A stretch of 64,000 nt of DNA, from IMG/VR virus record IMGVR_UViG_2870609773_000002, positions 15,181-79,180 of that record; one strand, given 5' to 3'. Positions 23,611-35,299 of this stretch are shown piece after piece (within the stretch, counting starts at the first letter, position 1; the number at the start of each line of letters is the position of its first letter). The notes under the pieces were generated by a model, which saw nothing but the letters and a program-made list of their open reading frames with translations, made no database searches and was not told the origin of the DNA. The stretch comes from a virus. Taxonomy: Duplodnaviria > Caudoviricetes. Both the position numbers and the translations under genes were made by a program.

Positions 23611-23667
23611 TGCGGGACGCCTCTTCCCTCGGTGGCTCCCTTGGAATACCAGCACGTAAGGGGCCTG

Positions 23668-24669
23668 ATGGGTTACAAGTTGGCCGACGAGGTGGCGATC
23701 AACGCGCCTAAGAGCACGCCTCCGAGGGACCTGCTCGCGTTGATCGCCATCGCTCGCAGGATCAACGACGCGACTCGCACCGGCTGGCTGACCCGCGAGG
23801 AGATCGCGCACTGGGCGAGGATCGACGTGCGGTCGGTGAAGGCGATGCGGGAGCGGCTGGTCGAGGCTGGGCTGCTCGTCGTGCTCGAATCGGGGGGCGG
23901 CCGCCGGAAGGCGACCGTGTTCTACATCCCTCCGATGCCTGGGTATCTGCCCGGGGAGCCGCCGCGTCCGCTCGACCTGGAGCTCGAAGCGGGCCCCTCG
24001 GACTTCCCCGTTTCGGGGCCGGACGGGTCCACGGGGGACCGGAAAGGGGGAAGTCCAGACTTCCCCGTTTCTCCTGTGGATGACGCTGTGGACGACCGGG
24101 AGACCGGTGGAAAAGGGGGAAGTCCAGGCTTCCCCGTTTCCGCGACCGAAAGGGGGAAGTCTGGACCGCAAAAGGGGAAGTTTGGGGCGAAAAAGGGGAA
24201 GTTTGGGGCGAAAAAGGGGAAGTCTGGACTTCCCCCCAATCCTCTCTCCACTCCTCAACTTCAATCCTCTTCTTCTCCGTACGGGGTCGAGGAGGAACCA
24301 AGCGCCCAAGCCGCCGACCACCACCCGGAAGACGAAGACAAGATCAGCAAGGAGGAGAAGAACACCCCGGCGGCCAGCCGCGCCGCCCGGGTCATCACCA
24401 AGCGCATCGGAGTGCCGCTCGACGAAGCCGAGCGCATCGCCCAGACCATCGCCCACGAAAACCGCGTCCGCCGAGCCCTGCACGTGTACGTCGCGGGTAT
24501 CCCCGCAGCGGACCTGCGCACCTGGCGCGAGACCGCCCGCAACCACGAAGCCCGCGAACAGGCCAAGGCCACACGGACCAACCGCCCCGCCGGCCGGTGC
24601 GACCTGCACTGGCAGCCCATCCCCTGCATCGGGTGCGCGGCCGACGCCAAGGCTATGCCCGACGCGTGA
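23668..24669 (+). CDS. Phage replication initiator (wHTH N-terminus, iteron-encoding linker)
   Basis: LLALIAIA..IND..RTGW...EEIAHWA....RSVK...L...GLL......GGRRKATVF; C-terminal CDLH..CxxC. Confidence 0.8.
   Translation: MGYKLADEVAINAPKSTPPRDLLALIAIARRINDATRTGWLTREEIAHWARIDVRSVKAMRERLVEAGLLVVLESGGGRRKATVFYIPPMPGYLPGEPPRPLDLELEAGPSDFPVSGPDGSTGDRKGGSPDFPVSPVDDAVDDRETGGKGGSPGFPVSATERGKSGPQKGKFGAKKGKFGAKKGKSGLPPNPLSTPQLQSSSSPYGVEEEPSAQAADHHPEDEDKISKEEKNTPAASRAARVITKRIGVPLDEAERIAQTIAHENRVRRALHVYVAGIPAADLRTWRETARNHEAREQAKATRTNRPAGRCDLHWQPIPCIGCAADAKAMPDA
24001..24235. repeat. Iteron array / probable lytic origin inside the initiator gene
   Basis: GGGGAAGT at 24047, 24116, 24153, 24174, 24195, 24216; inverse copies at 24002, 24059, 24228; 21-bp tandem period; DnaA-box-like TGTGGATGA near 24075. 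Confidence 0.8.
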
Positions 24670-25238: not shown

Positions 25239-26144
25239 GTGCAGATACGAACAAGCGAACGGCTCGCGTGGCTCACCGCAGTTGCGGCGCTCGCGTTCCT
25301 AGTAGCCAACACGCAGGCAGGAGGGGATGTGACCACGGCAACGCTGGTAGCGGACGAACCAACCGCGACCGTCACTGTCAGCGGTCCCCCCGGCCCGCCC
25401 GGACCCCAGGGCCCCCAGGGCGACCCCGGACCGATGGGCCCCCAGGGACCGCAAGGCGAACCCGGCGCGTCCGGCCCGCCCGGACCGCAGGGCAACGCCG
25501 GACCGATGGGAACCCCCGGACCTTCCGGCCCGCCCGGTCCCCAGGGCGACCCCGGACCTACGGCAACCGTCACCGCCGTACCGGTCCCCGGGCCCAAGGG
25601 CGACAAGGGCGACAAGGGCGACGCCGGACCCCAGGGCGAGCAAGGGCCCGCCGGACCGTCCGGCCCTCCGGGACCATCCGGCCCACCCGGACCCCAGGGC
25701 GACCAGGGCGACACCGGCCCCAAGGGCGACCCCGGACCGACCGGACCGCAGGGCGACCCCGGACCCACCGGAAGCGCCGGGCCATCCGGCCCGCCCGGCA
25801 CCGGCGACCCCGGACCGACTGGAGCCGCAGGGCCCGCCGGACGGGACGGCACCGCAGGGAGCCCCGGACCGTCCGGCAAGCCCCGATCGCCCGGACCCAA
25901 GGGCGACCAGGGCGACCCCGGAACGGCGGACACGCCGGAACCCGGCGAGATCGACGCGGCGAACACGGCCAACGGCGACCCCGTGACCGTGTGGGCCGCG
26001 TGGCTTGCCGCCCTGCTGGCAGTCGGAGCCGCCACGCTCGGACTGCTGATCAGGCGGCGACGCCGCAACCGCAGACCGGCCAGCGAAACCGCTGGTCAAC
26101 CTGCTAACAGCGGTACCGCTATCGACGACACACAGCAGCTCTAA
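25239..26144 (+). CDS. Collagen-like surface protein (signal peptide, Gly-X-Y repeats, C-terminal TM)
   Basis: 20 uninterrupted GXY triplets, a short linker, then more than 30 further triplets with small breaks; TM followed by RRRRR. Confidence 0.85.
26104..26125. promoter_or_regulatory. 22-bp palindromic site, copy 4 (CTAACAGCGGTACCGCTATCGA)
   Basis: Consensus match in the last codons of the collagen gene. Confidence 0.8.
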
Positions 26145-26931: not shown

Positions 26932-27618
26932 ATGATCCGCCGTGAGCAGGTAGAAGTGACCCGAGAGCACGCGCTGAACGCGCACCGGTCCGTCAGGGAC
27001 CACATGAGCCGATGCCGCCCATGCACCAAGGAGCCCATCCCGTGCGAGCTGGGCAGCATGTTGCAGCGTGGCGCGGGCAAGATCTCCCGCGAGGCAGCCG
27101 ACGCCCTAGCCGCCTACCTCCCGCCCGGCACCGAGGTCACCTACCAGGGCGACCGGCCCGAGTATCGGGGTAGGACGTTCGTTGTCGTGGGGCTTGCCCC
27201 GCGAACCCCGTGGATCGGCTACGTCCTCCGTGGGAGCGGCATTCGCCCGTTCTTCGCGACGCTGCCGAACGTCCAACCGAGCAGCCGCGAGGCTCAGCAG
27301 CGGAACCGGCTCGAAGCCGTCAAGCGCACGGTGGCCGTGTGCTGCGCCGTGCTGGCTCAGCACATGGTGTATCTCGACGTGAAGACGGAGCGGAGCGACA
27401 CCGGCGTTATCTGTGTGACCTGGAGTAGCGCGGAGTTCGTAGGCGCGGAGAACCGCGCGACGAGCGAGAGCGGCAAGCAGTCCGGGCAGTACATCGCCGG
27501 AGCGCTCTACCTGTTGCAGGCGCTACGCGCGCACACGCAGCGCCGTTCGTGGGATGACGTGGCGCGCGTCGCCCACAACGCCCAGAAGCTAGCCGACCAT
27601 GCGGGCGTTCGCGTGTAG
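26932..27618 (+). CDS. Hypothetical protein
   Basis: AGGAGG RBS; HxxxCxxC...C N-terminus. Confidence 0.65.
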   Translation: MIRREQVEVTREHALNAHRSVRDHMSRCRPCTKEPIPCELGSMLQRGAGKISREAADALAAYLPPGTEVTYQGDRPEYRGRTFVVVGLAPRTPWIGYVLRGSGIRPFFATLPNVQPSSREAQQRNRLEAVKRTVAVCCAVLAQHMVYLDVKTERSDTGVICVTWSSAEFVGAENRATSESGKQSGQYIAGALYLLQALRAHTQRRSWDDVARVAHNAQKLADHAGVRV

Positions 27619-27785
27619 CGCGACGCGCGACCAGCGCCGGACCGCATCGCGCGGTTCGGCGCTTCCGCATGCCCCCCGAGGGTACCCCGTTCGGGGCCGG
27701 CCAGGGCTGCATTCGGCTTGGTACCTGCGAAAAGATTTTGATCTTGTAGCCTTGTGGGCGTTTCGTCTCGGGGTCAGGGGGTGCC

Positions 27786-29312: not shown

Positions 29313-29389
29313 GACTGAATATCGTGCGCGGGCGAAGCGACGTTAGGCTGCGCGGTTTCGCGGCGGACACGAGCGGAGGAGGCGGATCG

Positions 29390-29411
29390 TTGATTGCGGT
29401 GCCGCTGTTGG
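29390..29411. promoter_or_regulatory. 22-bp palindromic site, copy 5 (TTGATTGCGGTGCCGCTGTTGG)
   Basis: Reverse complement CCAACAGCGGCACCGCAATCAA fits the consensus. Confidence 0.65.
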
Positions 29412-29479
29412 CTTGCGCCTGGCGGGGTGGGTGTGTAACACTTCCGGGCGACGGAGAGACTTGTGCCCTCGGACCGATC

Positions 29480-29749
29480 ATGGTTCGAGGGCTTTCCGCT
29501 GTTCGGGGGGTGTTGGTGTTCCCTGCGACGGCGAAGACTGCTGCTGTCCGGCTGGGCCGGGAGGCGGTGACGATCCGGCAGTGGGCGCGCCGGTATGGCG
29601 TGCGTGTGCTGGGGCGAGCCAGCCGCGAGGTCGTGTACGACTTCGCTGATCTGGCGACGATCGAGGGCTGTATCTGGCGGGGCGACGACGTGCCTGATTC
29701 GCCGGAGGGCCGGGATGCGTTGCGGGCTCGGCTGGCGGCGGCTGCGTAG
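29480..29749 (+). CDS. MerR/excisionase-like HTH protein; start uncertain
   Basis: ATAKTAAVRLGREAVTIRQWARRY...VYDFADL. Confidence 0.6.
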   Translation: MVRGLSAVRGVLVFPATAKTAAVRLGREAVTIRQWARRYGVRVLGRASREVVYDFADLATIEGCIWRGDDVPDSPEGRDALRARLAAAA

Positions 29750-29774
29750 GAGCAATCAGACAGGGGTGGCTGTG

Positions 29775-30002
29775 ATGGTTCGGAAGTATCAGCGGGTGGC
29801 GGGCGCGGAGCGCGAGGCGCTGAAGGCGGAGCTGAAGCGCCGGTACATGGACGGGGAGTCGATCCGGCGGCTGTCGATCTCGACGGGCCGCTCGTACGGG
29901 TTCGTTCACCGGCTGCTGGAGGAGGCGGGGGCGCCGCTGCGGCCGCGGGGCGGCAACCAGCGGCCGGCTCCTGTGGTTGTAGACGGGCGACCATCTAGCT
30001 GA
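29775..30002 (+). CDS. Small actinobacterial HTH protein (HTH_58-like)
   Basis: YMDGESIRRLSISTGRSYGFVHRLLEEAG..LRPRGG. Confidence 0.85.
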   Translation: MVRKYQRVAGAEREALKAELKRRYMDGESIRRLSISTGRSYGFVHRLLEEAGAPLRPRGGNQRPAPVVVDGRPSS

Positions 30003-30435
30003 TGCTGTTCACCCAGATGCCGATTGGGATCGAAAGGATTGCGGATACAAGAACGCCCGCGAGGAAGTAGGCGAGTTGCTGTCGCCGCTCGGCGCGGATG
30101 GTGGCCTTCGTTTCGTGGGTGAGGATGCTGCGGATCTTCTCGGCCTGTTCCTCGTTCACGGCCAGCAACTCTTGCTGTCGTTTCGCCTCTTCGATCAGTG
30201 CTGTGCGGGTTGCCTGCTGGGCTTCAAGATCTTTCTGCAACTCCTGCAGCAGCATGCCCGCCTCCGAGAAGGCAGCGTTGACTAGTTCGATACGGCGCTG
30301 GAGCCGTTTCCCGGGATCTTCCTCAGCCTCCCTGATGCGTCTACGTCTCAGGAGGCTCACCAGTTCGTTCGCCGCCACGCCGATCAACGAACTGCCCAAG
30401 ACTACGAAGAGGCTTCCCAGAAGATCCATGTGCAT
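29995..30435 (-). CDS. Two-TM coiled-coil accessory protein
   Basis: N- and C-terminal TM flanking long heptads; lower GC. Confidence 0.7.
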   Translation of the reverse strand: MHMDLLGSLFVVLGSSLIGVAANELVSLLRRRRIREAEEDPGKRLQRRIELVNAAFSEAGMLLQELQKDLEAQQATRTALIEEAKRQQELLAVNEEQAEKIRSILTHETKATIRAERRQQLAYFLAGVLVSAILSIPIGIWVNSIS

Positions 30436-30524
30436 ATTCGATCGTGTCGGCTCTGTGCGTGTATCGGAAGTGCCCCAATCGAAACCCTGGGCCGCCCATG
30501 ATCAGAGCAATCAAGATCGATAGA

Positions 30525-30554
30525 AGAGGAACATAATTCAGGTTATGTTCCTCT
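30525..30554. promoter_or_regulatory. dif-like tyrosine-recombinase site
   Basis: AGAGGAACATAA-TTCAGG-TTATGTTCCTCT: perfect 12-bp inverted arms with 6-bp spacer, 50 bp upstream of the recombinase operon. Confidence 0.8.
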
Positions 30555-30604
30555 CTCCGGTGTTACGCTCGAAGTGATCACCCCTTCCACGAAAGAAGAT
30601 CATC

Positions 30605-30808
30605 ATGAGCGTGCGAAAGTTCCCGCTGACTCTGCGCGTCGCCGTGACCGGAGCAACACCGGATGAGATCAGAGAAGCGGCCGTGGCGCAGGCCCTCGCG
30701 TTCTTCGGGTCGAGCACCGAGCTGGACGTCATCAGCGCCGAAGCCGAGCCGGAGGGGGAGCATCACAGCCGCTACCGCGCGGTCGTCGTGTTCCGGAAAG
30801 TCGCCTGA
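30605..30808 (+). CDS. Small hypothetical protein upstream of recombinase
   Basis: GAAAGAAG RBS, 67 aa. Confidence 0.6.
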   Translation: MSVRKFPLTLRVAVTGATPDEIREAAVAQALAFFGSSTELDVISAEAEPEGEHHSRYRAVVVFRKVA

Positions 30809-30880
30809 TGCGCCGCGCCAGCGATAAGGCCGGGGATGCCGTCGCCGGCTTCCCGCTGCCGTTCGGCGCAGGGGACGATC

Positions 30881-31849
30881 GTGAACGCTGAGCTGATCGT
30901 CGTCCGGAGCGAAGACGTCGCGCTGCCGCTGGACCTGCCGCCGATCATTCTCGACCTGACCCGGGCGTGGCTGTGGTCGTTCGACTCGAAGAACACGCGG
31001 GACACGTACGAGCGGTACATTCGGCGATGGTTCGAGTTCTGCAACGAGACCGGCCTCGATCCGCTGGAGGCCCGCAAGCCGCACGGCGACGTGTTCTCCC
31101 GCTGGTTCCAGGAGACGGCCCGCCGACCACCGAAGCCGAAGACAGTGGCATTAGTCCTGTCCACGGTGTCGTCCTGGTACGAGTACCTGCACGAGACCGA
31201 AGCCCTCGACGCCAACCGGTTCAAGAAGACGCGACGACCGAAGATCCCCCGCAAGCACTCCGAGACGGTCGCGCTCACCAAGGGCGAGGCGCGGGACCTC
31301 CTCCGGGCGGCCGACGCCGACCATGGCCGGGAACGGCTGCGCACCGCGGCGCTGCTCCGGCTGCTGCTGCAGACCGGCGTCCGCATCTCCGAGGCGGTGA
31401 ACGCGCAGATCGACGACCTCGGGTTCGCCCGTGGGTATCGGACGCTGCGCATCACGGTGAAGGGCGGCGACACGATTACCCGGCGGCTGCCGGTGGAGGC
31501 GACGCACGCGCTGGATGTCTACCTCGCTGAGCGGGCGCACCGCGAAGGGGTCGAGCTGCAGGACCTGCGGGGCCCGCTATTCGCGACCTCGACGGGCCAG
31601 AGCTGGAGCAGGTCGAAGGCGTTCGAGCTGGTGCGGCGCATTGCCGCCCAGGCGGGCATCACGTCGAAGGTGGGGCCGCACTCCCTGCGGCACACCTACG
31701 CATCGCTGGCGCAGGAGGCCGGCGTCGCGATGCGGCAGATCCAGCTCGACCTCAACCACGCCGACGTGTCCACGACGGAGATCTACTTGCACAGCCGGGA
31801 CCGGCTGGAGAAGGACGCCTCTCAGGTGGTGGCGTCGCTGCTGGAGTAG
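30881..31849 (+). CDS. Tyrosine recombinase, XerC/D-type (no arm-binding domain seen)
   Basis: SAM-like N-terminus; catalytic R (TGVRISE), K (VKGG), HSLRH, H (LNHAD), Y (TTEIY). Confidence 0.93.
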   Translation: MNAELIVVRSEDVALPLDLPPIILDLTRAWLWSFDSKNTRDTYERYIRRWFEFCNETGLDPLEARKPHGDVFSRWFQETARRPPKPKTVALVLSTVSSWYEYLHETEALDANRFKKTRRPKIPRKHSETVALTKGEARDLLRAADADHGRERLRTAALLRLLLQTGVRISEAVNAQIDDLGFARGYRTLRITVKGGDTITRRLPVEATHALDVYLAERAHREGVELQDLRGPLFATSTGQSWSRSKAFELVRRIAAQAGITSKVGPHSLRHTYASLAQEAGVAMRQIQLDLNHADVSTTEIYLHSRDRLEKDASQVVASLLE

Positions 31850-33554: not shown

Positions 33555-34184
33555 GTGCCCGCTATCGTGTCGCAGACCTATCGAATGGTCTCGGTCGCCG
33601 ACCTCGAACCGCACCCCGACAACCCTCACCAGGGCGACGTGGACGTGATCGCCGAGTCGATCAAGAAGAACGGCTTCTACGGCACGGTCCTGGTCCAGAA
33701 GTCGCAGATGCGGATCATCGCTGGTGAGCACCGCTGGCGCGGCGCGAAGGCCAACCACTTGCGGCAGGTGCCGGCCCTGATCATCGACGTTGACGACGAC
33801 ACCGCCACCCGGATCATGCTCGCCGACAACCGGACCGCCGAGTTCGGCGCGTACGACGACCACGCCCTTGCCGACCTGCTGCACGGCCTGGACGACCTCG
33901 ACGGCACCGGCTGGACGGAGCAGGACCTCGACGACCTGGCCGACGCCATCGCCGCCGACAACGCGGTAGCCCTCGGCCCCGAACGCGCTCCGGTCCCGGG
34001 CGGTGGCCGCGCCGACCAGGCCGGCGCCGACGACGAAGAAGAGCTGCCGGAACCGGGCGACGCTGAGACGCATACGCGGCCCGTTGTCTGGGGCGTCGTG
34101 GTCACCTGCGACAGCGAGGCCGAGCAGGTGCAGCTCCTCAACCAGCTCACGGGCCAGGGCTGGAACGTCCGCGCCCTGATGTAG
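33555..34184 (+). CDS. ParB/Srx N-terminal-domain protein (terminase-associated type)
   Basis: LEPHPDNPH, SIKKNGF, IIAGEHRWRGA, LADNRTAE. Confidence 0.88.
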   Translation: MPAIVSQTYRMVSVADLEPHPDNPHQGDVDVIAESIKKNGFYGTVLVQKSQMRIIAGEHRWRGAKANHLRQVPALIIDVDDDTATRIMLADNRTAEFGAYDDHALADLLHGLDDLDGTGWTEQDLDDLADAIAADNAVALGPERAPVPGGGRADQAGADDEEELPEPGDAETHTRPVVWGVVVTCDSEAEQVQLLNQLTGQGWNVRALM

Positions 34185-34213
34185 CCCCTGCTACCCCCTC
34201 GAAAGGTCGTGTT

Positions 34214-35299
34214 GTGCGAGCCGAGATCACCGTATCGGCACCGGTCCACAGGACTGCCCGAGTGCTGCAGCTCCAGGGCCTGTTCGACGTGCCCGTGGAG
34301 GAGCGGCTGAGCAACACCTGGGCCATGGACCTGCCGATCGAGGACCAGCCGTGGAGCGTAGGGCTGATCGTCGGCCCCTCCGGGGCTGGCAAGACGACCA
34401 TCGCGCGGCACCTGTGGCCCGACCACGTCACCGGCCCGCACACCTGGTCCGAGGACCGGTCGCTCGTGGACGACTTCCCGGCCGACATGTCCATCAAGGA
34501 CATCGTGGCCCTGCTGGGCGCGGTCGGACTGTCCTCGCCGCCGGCCTGGCTCCGGCCGCACCGAACGCTGAGCACCGGGGAGGCGTTCCGCGCATCCATC
34601 GCACGGGCCCTGGCCGAGTCCGGCGACCTGGTCGTCATCGACGAGTTCACGTCGGTCGTGGACCGCCAGGTCGCGCGGGTCGCCAGCCACACGATCCAGA
34701 AGACCGTACGGCGCGGTGGCCGCCAGTTCGTCGCCGTGACCTGCCATTACGACGTGCTGGAGTGGCTGCAGCCGGATTGGGTGCTGGACGTCTCGACAGG
34801 CTCGTTCGAGTGGAGGTCGGTTCAACCCCGCCCCCAGCTCCAGCTCGAAATCCGGCCGGTCGATGGACAGCTCTGGCCTGTCTTCGCACGTCATCACTAT
34901 CTGAGCTCGGACCTCCACCGCTCCAGCAAGAAGTTCGCCGGGTTCATCAACGGTGAGCCGGTCGCGTTCCTGGCCTACCGGCACTTCCAGCACCCGGCGA
35001 CGCGGAACCTGAAGATGGAGCACCGGCTGGTGGTTCTGCCGGACTATCAGGGGCTCGGCATCGGGAGCCGCTTCTCCGAGTGGATGGGGCAGCGGCTGTA
35101 CGAGCAGGGGTTCCGCTACCGGTCGGTGTCGTCACATCCGGCGCTGATCGCCTACCGAAGCGCGTCGCCGCGGTGGCGGATGATCCAGGGCCAGAAGAAG
35201 CTCGGCACCCGGTCCAAGCACCAGTGGATGCACGCGCAGACGCTCGACCCGCGCCGTCTCGGTGTCGTGTCGTTCGAGTACGTGGCACCGCGAATCTAG
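34214..35299 (+). CDS. ABC-type ATPase fused to a GNAT/Mom-like acetyltransferase
   Basis: GPSGAGKT, LSTGE, IDEF, VTCH; FARHHYL, RLVVLPDYQGLGIG. Confidence 0.88.
   Translation: MRAEITVSAPVHRTARVLQLQGLFDVPVEERLSNTWAMDLPIEDQPWSVGLIVGPSGAGKTTIARHLWPDHVTGPHTWSEDRSLVDDFPADMSIKDIVALLGAVGLSSPPAWLRPHRTLSTGEAFRASIARALAESGDLVVIDEFTSVVDRQVARVASHTIQKTVRRGGRQFVAVTCHYDVLEWLQPDWVLDVSTGSFEWRSVQPRPQLQLEIRPVDGQLWPVFARHHYLSSDLHRSSKKFAGFINGEPVAFLAYRHFQHPATRNLKMEHRLVVLPDYQGLGIGSRFSEWMGQRLYEQGFRYRSVSSHPALIAYRSASPRWRMIQGQKKLGTRSKHQWMHAQTLDPRRLGVVSFEYVAPRI

Follow-up and report, generated by a model that had tools for sequence, protein, structure and literature searches.

The DNA analyzed here is a 64,000-nucleotide stretch of a temperate siphophage genome (IMG/VR record IMGVR_UViG_2870609773_000002; hereafter the window, i.e., positions 15318-79317 of contig C2 in genome G000). 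In the middle of the phage genome it carries a perfect dif-like palindrome and, 326 bp downstream, the gene of a Xer-like tyrosine recombinase. Comparisons with related loci indicate that the palindrome is almost certainly the target, or core recombination site, of the neighboring enzyme. They further suggest that the two form a self-contained cassette for multimer resolution or cyclization, similar to Cre/loxP or XerS/difSL, a reading to which we assign a probability of about 0.6. The site and the recombinase gene are as follows.

30525 to 30554, no strand assigned: core site, with 12-bp inverted arms AGAGGAACATAA and TTATGTTCCTCT and the 6-bp spacer TTCAGG; its conserved core is GGAACATAA-N6-TTATGTTCC.
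30881 to 31849, plus strand: Xer-like "simple" tyrosine recombinase, GTG start, 322 aa.

The two arms of the site (30525-30536 and 30543-30554) are 12 nt each and 100% complementary, and with the 6-nt spacer they form a perfect 12-6-12 palindrome. Five loci with perfect inverted repeats of at least 12 nt per arm were observed in the window, compared to a mean of 0.1 expected from first-order Markov simulations of the same DNA; none of the other four is an AT-rich dif-like site, and three are GC-rich hairpins. The palindrome is present only once in the 12.88-Mb genome. It is housed in a divergent intergenic gap of 169 bp, between a plausible leftward gene of 146 aa (29995-30435) and a rightward operon consisting of ORF67 (30605-30808) and the recombinase gene. 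A first-pass annotation of this DNA had reported a perfect dif-like palindrome, intact and with phage genes on both sides. The 12/12 complementary arms, the 6-nt spacer and the flanking phage genes agree with that description. Similarity to dif is genuine, yet it is limited to the inner bases: 5/11 and 6/11 arm positions are shared with the dif of the host.

The recombinase contains a Phage_integrase domain (PF00589) and a SAM-like core-binding domain. Its PF00589 score of 95.4 bits (cut-off 27.1) places it within the tyrosine recombinase superfamily. The XerA, XerD and XerC models align to it over the full length (residues 36-309 of 322 for XerD), with scores far under their cut-offs. It is thus not a member of the XerD (145.3 bits vs. 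329.6) or XerC (136.8 bits vs. 335.15) equivalogs of NCBIfam, nor of the XerA (148 bits vs. 220) or XerS (77.3 bits vs. 267) equivalogs. An upstream ATG at 30836 would give an alternative recombinase of 337 aa; 322 aa is the length shared by most annotated homologues. The catalytic residues R183, K209, H282, R285, H308, and Y317 (337-aa numbering) do not vary among 17 aligned homologues with identities down to 42%. In the AlphaFold2 (AF2) model, ~30 disordered N-terminal residues are followed by a four-helix domain (36-120) and a catalytic domain (149-320). The enzyme is predicted to be a two-domain Xer/Cre-type "simple" recombinase without an arm-binding domain, because only these disordered residues precede the core-binding domain. 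The top fold matches of the model are XerA, IntI4, the XerH-difH complex, XerD, and Cre, and the nearest solved sequence relative is XerD. Both the Pfam domains and the model agree with the initial description of a 322-aa Xer-type enzyme, lacking an arm-binding domain, beside the site. Homologues are numerous in Nonomuraea and other Streptosporangiaceae, with identities of up to 92%. Searches of phage and plasmid proteins returned matches of ≤38% identity only, with no close homologue on any plasmid of PLSDB. A blastn search of the locus against 50,697 phage records gave zero matches.

Conservation of the site was surveyed in 79 recombinase-homologue loci retrieved by a genome scan (L-numbers denote these loci). 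The sequence GGAACATAA-N6-TTATGTTCC was found in 16/79 loci, always in the same orientation and 200-1,170 bp upstream of the recombinase. Within these 16 loci the 9-bp arms are near-invariant, three loci having one or two changes in one arm, while the spacers vary (TTCAGG, TTCACG, TCCAAG, TCGCGG, and TTACCG, among others) and the outermost three bases drift. The site stands as a conserved island in L004-L006 and L008, where the DNA on either side cannot be aligned to the window by BLAST. More broadly, a palindrome occupies the same place and orientation in ~35 related Streptosporangiaceae loci. A second arm class reads TGGTCATAA-N6-TTATGACCA (TGGTC) and a third CCCCTCATAA-N6-TTATGGGGG (CCCTC), and more distant variants occur in Actinopolymorpha (CCCTCATAA-N6-TTATGTGGG) and Allorhizocola (TACACCATAA-N6-TTATGGTGTA). 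The inner CATAA-N6-TTATG is unchanged in 37/37 sites, which between them contain 22 different spacers. In 35 of these 37 the spacer begins with T, indicating that the polarity of the site relative to the gene is fixed.

The arm classes follow the phylogeny of the enzyme. In a maximum-likelihood tree, the GGAAC (GGAACATAA), TGGTC (TGGTCATAA), and CCCTC (CCCCTCATAA) classes coincide with three recombinase subclades, each with an SH-like approximate likelihood ratio test (SH-aLRT) value of 99 and all nested in a clade of 36 rows. Rows L014-L016, L055, L056, L066, and L072 are wrong-frame open reading frame (ORF) extractions on long branches and were disregarded. No CATAA-N6-TTATG site was found within ~2-3 kb of the homologues in Herbidospora, Acrocarpospora, and most Micromonosporaceae, and we therefore restrict the claim of linkage to the 36-row clade and a few outliers. 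The identification of the palindrome as almost certainly the target of the recombinase follows from three properties: its inner bases are shared with dif, its spacer is fixed in length and free in sequence, and its outer bases change with the enzyme.

Site, optional small ORF, and recombinase gene together constitute a compact cassette of ~1.34 kb (30511-31849). Its other parts are listed here.

30511 to 30524, plus strand: left flank TCAAGATCGATAGA (consensus cAAGATCGCTAAG, 13 nt), conserved beside all three arm classes.
30561 to 30569, plus strand: TGTTACGCT, an extended -10-like element 7 nt past the site, conserved in the GGAAC class.
30605 to 30808, plus strand: ORF67, 67 aa, of unassigned family, between site and recombinase in many, not all, cassettes.

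The left flank, at which homology with cassette-only relatives starts, is possibly a -35/UP region or the site of an accessory factor. ORF67 is modeled by AF2 with a beta-alpha-beta-beta fold (pLDDT 89); it matched no Pfam, NCBIfam, or Atlas family, and Foldseek returned a weak dodecin-like topology at E 0.01 or worse. The recombinase is the sole constant partner of the site, since ORF67 is missing from several cassettes; in L027 and L028, no ORF was called in the 45-57 nt that separate the site from the recombinase match. The cassette also occurs alone and is therefore a discrete module. L013 (9596-10916) and L046 (9573-10916) each contain a solitary 1.33-kb copy (81% identical), bounded by the left flank and the stop codon of the recombinase gene, among ordinary chromosomal genes (SARP regulator, esterase, RtcB, and RecD2; histidine kinase). 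These copies have unrelated flanks and no second flanking site, and hence were not inserted through their own site. A tblastx comparison of cassette-only loci produced mainly high-GC noise.

The phage itself is one of a family of temperate siphophages, ~95 kb in size, whose hosts are Nonomuraea and related Streptosporangiaceae. C2 is a contig of 96,733 bp with a GC content of 0.68, compared to 0.715 for the circular 12.78-Mb chromosome C1, and encodes a large terminase, portal, MuF-like protein, major capsid protein, tape measure, and tail proteins. Many of its relatives are stand-alone contigs, 90-108 kb long, and four of them were taken whole. Those of N. antri (99,127 bp) and P. phitsanulokensis (95,476 bp) are both permuted circularly relative to C2, such that the att/Int region comes to lie in their interior. 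The termini of the N. maritima contig (94,716 bp) overlap by 38 bp, and the T. tengchongensis contig (94,387 bp) matches C2 through the site region and the structural genes to the att-proximal end. In the contigs of T. tengchongensis, P. phitsanulokensis, and N. maritima, PF00589 matched the Xer-like gene and nothing else, and there was no match to serine recombinases (PF00239) on any of the three; some members therefore have no integrase and keep only the cassette. The N. antri contig also carries an integrase. Three of the four contigs look circular, and the family appears to occur as free circles.

A likely origin of the circular form lies in the following gene.

23632 to 24669, plus strand: lambda-O-like replication initiator gene, with 4.1 copies of a 21-bp repeat (24144-24229).

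The initiator repeats are likely the iterons of a theta-type origin. The GC-skew minimum falls near 27 kb, and the phage origin lies 6 kb from the site. The iteron replicon proposed in the first-pass annotation survives insofar as four 21-bp repeats exist, with the qualification that they sit within the lambda-O-like initiator gene. A separate set of repeats at 25404-25878 has periods of 9, 18, 27, and 36, all multiples of 9, and resembles a collagen-like Gly-X-Y coding repeat, in a putative frame, more than it does iterons. In two relatives, a contig terminus lies no more than a few kb from here.

We propose that the cassette would work on the circular form. Two recombinase monomers would bind the two arms, and direct-repeat sites on a dimeric or concatemeric circle would synapse as a tetramer. 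The conserved tyrosine would then cut at the edges of the spacer, and the asymmetry of the spacer would set the orientation of the exchange, such that dimers are resolved to monomers. Terminally redundant injected DNA may be cyclized likewise, with chromosomal integration left to a separate Int/Xis/attP module at the contig ends. Binding of the recombinase at the site may also autoregulate the operon. The cassette is probably autoregulated, which is plausible because the site is just upstream of, and possibly overlaps, the likely cassette promoter. The resolution reading is favored since a circular theta-replicating element in a recombination-proficient host must undo dimers. The standard solution is a simple recombinase encoded by the element itself and acting at a single site close by, as in Cre/loxP and ResD/rfsF. 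The earlier suggestion of a Cre/lox-like resolution system on an episomal phage thus appears the best reading of the circular and stand-alone relatives and of the conservation of the site. Literature searches gave no description of this phage recombinase/site system.

Several considerations weigh against this proposal. Binding, catalysis, resolution, and autoregulation are all inferred, and the evidence for them is wholly comparative. As site and gene are co-inherited, the co-variation of clade and site partly reflects common descent; the frozen arms, as opposed to the free spacer and flanks, appear to be the stronger argument. The ends of C2 fall exactly at the edge of a 33-bp att core, as an assembler would produce from a culture in which integrated forms are mixed with empty or excised ones, and this need not imply a true plasmid. 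No ParA-type partition system was found by a Walker-A motif scan of C2, which yielded only an ATPase-GNAT protein adjoining a ParB_N protein. Integrated prophages also keep the cassette intact, which resolution alone does not explain, and the solitary chromosomal cassettes L013 and L046 have no obvious circular replicon to resolve. The first-pass description of the element as a phage-plasmid, for which a search for parA had been advised, is thus upheld in part: the integrase-less relatives on stand-alone contigs are in its favor, whereas the ability of C2 to integrate and the negative search for parA on this contig are not.

It is also conceivable, if unlikely, that the cassette serves cyclization or exchange between phages rather than plasmid maintenance. 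Two sites would then recombine on terminally redundant or co-infecting DNA, with the effect that genomes circularize after infection and genome halves are shuffled at the site. The position of the cassette is fixed in the phage family, with replication and early genes on one side and packaging genes on the other. The packaging genes begin ~5 kb downstream, an arrangement that is conserved and recalls the location of loxP near pac in P1. In L002, L003, L007, L009, L010, L013, and L046, homology to the window starts no more than ~15 bp from the site, and the DNA on either side of the site has been swapped among relatives. L049 carries a hybrid site at 624-653, TTCCCCCCATAA TCCTCG TTATGACCATTG, that combines a CCC-class left arm and spacer with a TGGTC-class right arm and may record a past exchange between the two classes. 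However, phage genomes often have mosaic boundaries at gene borders with no site-specific recombination involved, and the L049 flanks show no clean division by type. The idea also overlaps with the resolution and cyclization reading that we prefer.

It is decidedly unlikely that the palindrome is an operator only, i.e., a binding site through which the recombinase or another regulator controls divergent promoters with no strand exchange. The location of the site within a divergent intergenic region would suit an operator. So would the conserved block of the GGAAC class, in which TGTTACGCT is followed by a leader hairpin and then by the ORF67 start codon at a fixed distance. The left arm and first spacer base also read CATAAT, resembling a -10 hexamer. 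A sigma-70 consensus scan nevertheless found no promoter at the locus, and TGTTACGCT is considered a putative promoter element because of its conservation. A variable spacer with a fixed length of 6 bp, the invariant CATAA/TTATG, which dif sites share, and the conservation of all catalytic residues across the aligned homologues each speak for catalysis. Regulation and recombination are moreover compatible rather than exclusive functions.

A second integration system, in which the site would be the attP for host dif or a look-alike in integrase-less members or in other hosts, is very unlikely. In Arthrobacter and Gordonia phages, short Xer-like enzymes with ~33% identity to this recombinase are annotated as integrases, and three relatives, as described above, have no other recombinase. 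However, C2 has a separate integration module outside the window. A 419-aa integrase with Phage_integrase, SAM_3, and Int_M domains (C2:138-1397, minus strand) and an HTH_17 Xis-like gene (C2:96237-96476, plus strand) lie at opposite contig ends. The attP is formed by C2:96633-96733 joined to C2:1-40; over ~100 nt it shows homology with an acyl-CoA dehydrogenase gene (C1:7.754 Mb), at the 3' end of that gene. It shares a 33-bp identical core with an attB at C1:7,753,920-7,754,015 that is intact and unoccupied. A search for a second integrase beyond the window, advised in the first-pass annotation, thus located the true integration system.

Integrated relatives provide further evidence. Sphaerisporangium viridialbum (G002) carries the complete C2-like element in collinear order at 5.590-5.682 Mb of its chromosome, inserted in the orthologous acyl-CoA dehydrogenase gene with 76-bp repeats at both sides. 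In Nonomuraea thailandensis, a C2-like element is collinear in the chromosome at 6.452-6.548 Mb. The mid-genome site is intact and the sole copy per genome in N. thailandensis, S. viridialbum, and N. sediminis (G001, G002, and G004; prophage ends were mapped in G001 and G002). Five further genomes (G010-G014) contain one clear site per recombinase gene, the extras being two weak matches with three mismatches. No attB look-alike of the site was found in the chromosome of the host itself, where the closest match covers 14/18 arm positions, or in eight other genomes. Relatives lacking an integrase are not inserted; they stand alone as contigs in which the site is whole. These findings agree with the earlier remark that the element is not integrated through the palindrome, and do not support the accompanying suggestion that it is the attP of an excised genome: integrated relatives retain one intact internal site amid phage DNA, with no division into attL and attR, and another Int/attP is used.

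Host dif fares no better as a target. It reads TTGCTCGATAA TGAACA TTATGTCAAGT (C1:6,042,865), lies 1.7 Mb from attB, and shares with the phage site only the inner 4-6 bases of each arm. We located dif in five genomes, in which the elements are 1-3 Mb away, and integration at host dif, which had also been suggested, was rejected on this basis. A role in chromosomal dimer resolution of the XerC/XerD type was rejected as well, given that the site is on a 96.7-kb phage contig, not at dif near the terminus, and that the dif arms differ; the host carries its own XerD-like and XerC-like genes (323 and 275 bits). The attP and host-dif readings are therefore rejected because of the separate Int/Xis/attP, the intact site in integrated relatives, and the different host dif. 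The site is not used for integration, and a second-integration role is already largely refuted for the genomes examined. A further Xer-like recombinase gene (C1:6050642-6051523) scores 124 bits against the XerD model and is located ~8 kb from host dif; it may be part of an element that integrated beside dif.

Finally, it is barely credible that the repeat acts in the transcript, as a terminator of the leftward gene or a 5' stem-loop: a stable RNA fold is predicted for the region (-27.1 kcal/mol, z = -5.5), but the arms of four TGGTC-class sites contain a T-T mismatch, a T-tract is absent, a terminator scan was without result, the site is upstream rather than downstream of both flanking genes, and the arms are frozen within clades with no drift by compensatory change.

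Other features of the surroundings were also recorded. The block at 29375-29976 of the window is the best conserved near the cassette, with 85-92% identity in many relatives; it has no clean coding signature (mixed GC3 and weak 3-periodicity of substitutions) and no Rfam match. An Rfam search of the window from 26 to 36 kb gave no relevant match. A sub-threshold match to the c-di-GMP-II-GAG riboswitch occurs at 27594-27675 on the minus strand (28.9 bits vs. a gathering score of 40; E 0.028). At 33555-35299, the ParB_N-domain protein is followed by the ATPase-GNAT fusion, just upstream of the terminase genes; the pair may serve packaging or partition, and no ParA partner was found. Beside the att region, C2:93654-95561 encodes a 635-aa protein with weak matches to FtsK/SpoIIIE (E 1.6e-4) and plasmid TraB (E 1.8e-5), far below the cut-offs; if these are real, the phage would encode a conjugation-type translocase, as plasmid-phages of the pZL12 type reportedly do.

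Among known systems, the cassette is functionally closest to Cre/loxP of P1 and its mined relatives such as Dre/rox, VCre/VloxP, and Vika/vox. As in P1, a self-encoded tyrosine recombinase without an arm-binding domain is paired with a single palindromic site that has an asymmetric spacer, lies near the gene, and is carried by a temperate phage able to be circular. Dimer resolution or cyclization is the presumed function, and the predicted fold matches Cre complexes. In contrast, the phage enzyme has 14-17% identity to Cre in structural alignment and is closer to Xer proteins, and its site has a 12-6-12 layout with dif-like inner bases compared to 13-8-13. C2 also differs in having a classical Int/attP and being able to integrate, in that no ParAB was detected, and in that its recombinase activity is a prediction.

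By sequence and site geometry, the cassette is closest to the single-recombinase Xer systems, i.e., XerS/difSL of streptococci, XerH/difH of Helicobacter and Campylobacter, and XerA/dif of archaea. These also use one enzyme and a near-palindromic site of ~28-31 bp with a 6-bp spacer. The phage cassette has this architecture, with a linked near-palindromic site and linkage kept in ~35 loci; genetic linkage of site and gene is likewise reported for XerS (PMC2731167). However, those systems resolve chromosome dimers at the terminus, with FtsK involved in the bacterial ones, whereas this cassette is phage-borne, lies 6 kb from the phage origin, and scores below every Xer equivalog cut-off. Replicon-encoded recombinases also act with a nearby site to undo dimers or cointegrates in ResD/rfsF of F and TnpI/IRS of Tn4430.

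Related lifestyles are found in other actinomycete phages. PhiNon1, a plasmid-phage of Nonomuraea gerenzanensis, was shown experimentally to exist both as a multicopy circle and integrated at attB (PMC5431353). Like Streptomyces pZL12, it is an actinomycete temperate phage that replicates as a circle; unlike the present family, PhiNon1 has a size of 59 kb and uses a tRNA-Val gene for integration. We know of no Xer-like cassette described for PhiNon1 or pZL12. Integrative mobile elements exploiting Xer (IMEX), such as CTXphi and TLCphi, share the presence of a dif-like site on a phage. They use host XerCD and encode no recombinase of their own, whereas the phage here self-encodes its recombinase, its arms differ from host dif, and its integrated relatives are not at dif. 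The cassette is thus outside all curated Xer equivalogs, not chromosomal, and not an IMEX.

Elements sharing a genome mostly differ in arm class (CA-141351, N. sediminis, N. basaltis, and LPB2021202275), and the spacers differ in the sole co-resident pair of the same class (NEAU-A123), which suggests selection for orthogonality. A tentative and on balance doubtful extension is that the cassettes are an evolved set of mutually orthogonal Cre/lox-like pairs, whose arm classes and spacers diversified under selection against recombination between related phages or phage-plasmids in one cell. If true, the arm classes, of which there are at least three in Streptosporangiaceae and more in other actinomycetes, would be an "incompatibility code" for site-specific recombination. 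The first-pass annotation had envisaged one orthogonal recombinase/site pair; the arm classes matching subclades provide a natural series of candidate pairs.

These findings indicate that large temperate actinophages can carry two tyrosine-recombinase systems: Int/attP for integration and a Xer-like/dif-like cassette that would serve the circular form. Short "integrase" genes in such genomes are not automatically the integration enzyme, and this default annotation needs correction. The ~95-kb Nonomuraea phage family is integrated in some cases and occurs in integrase-less, stand-alone, apparently circular form in others. Its recombinase/site pairs, with GGAAC, TGGTC, and CCCTC arms and many spacers, are native to high-GC actinomycetes and probably orthogonal, and orthogonal Cre-like tools would be useful in these antibiotic producers. 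The co-variation of arm and clade also offers natural data for studying the recognition of outer arm bases by enzymes of the Xer type.

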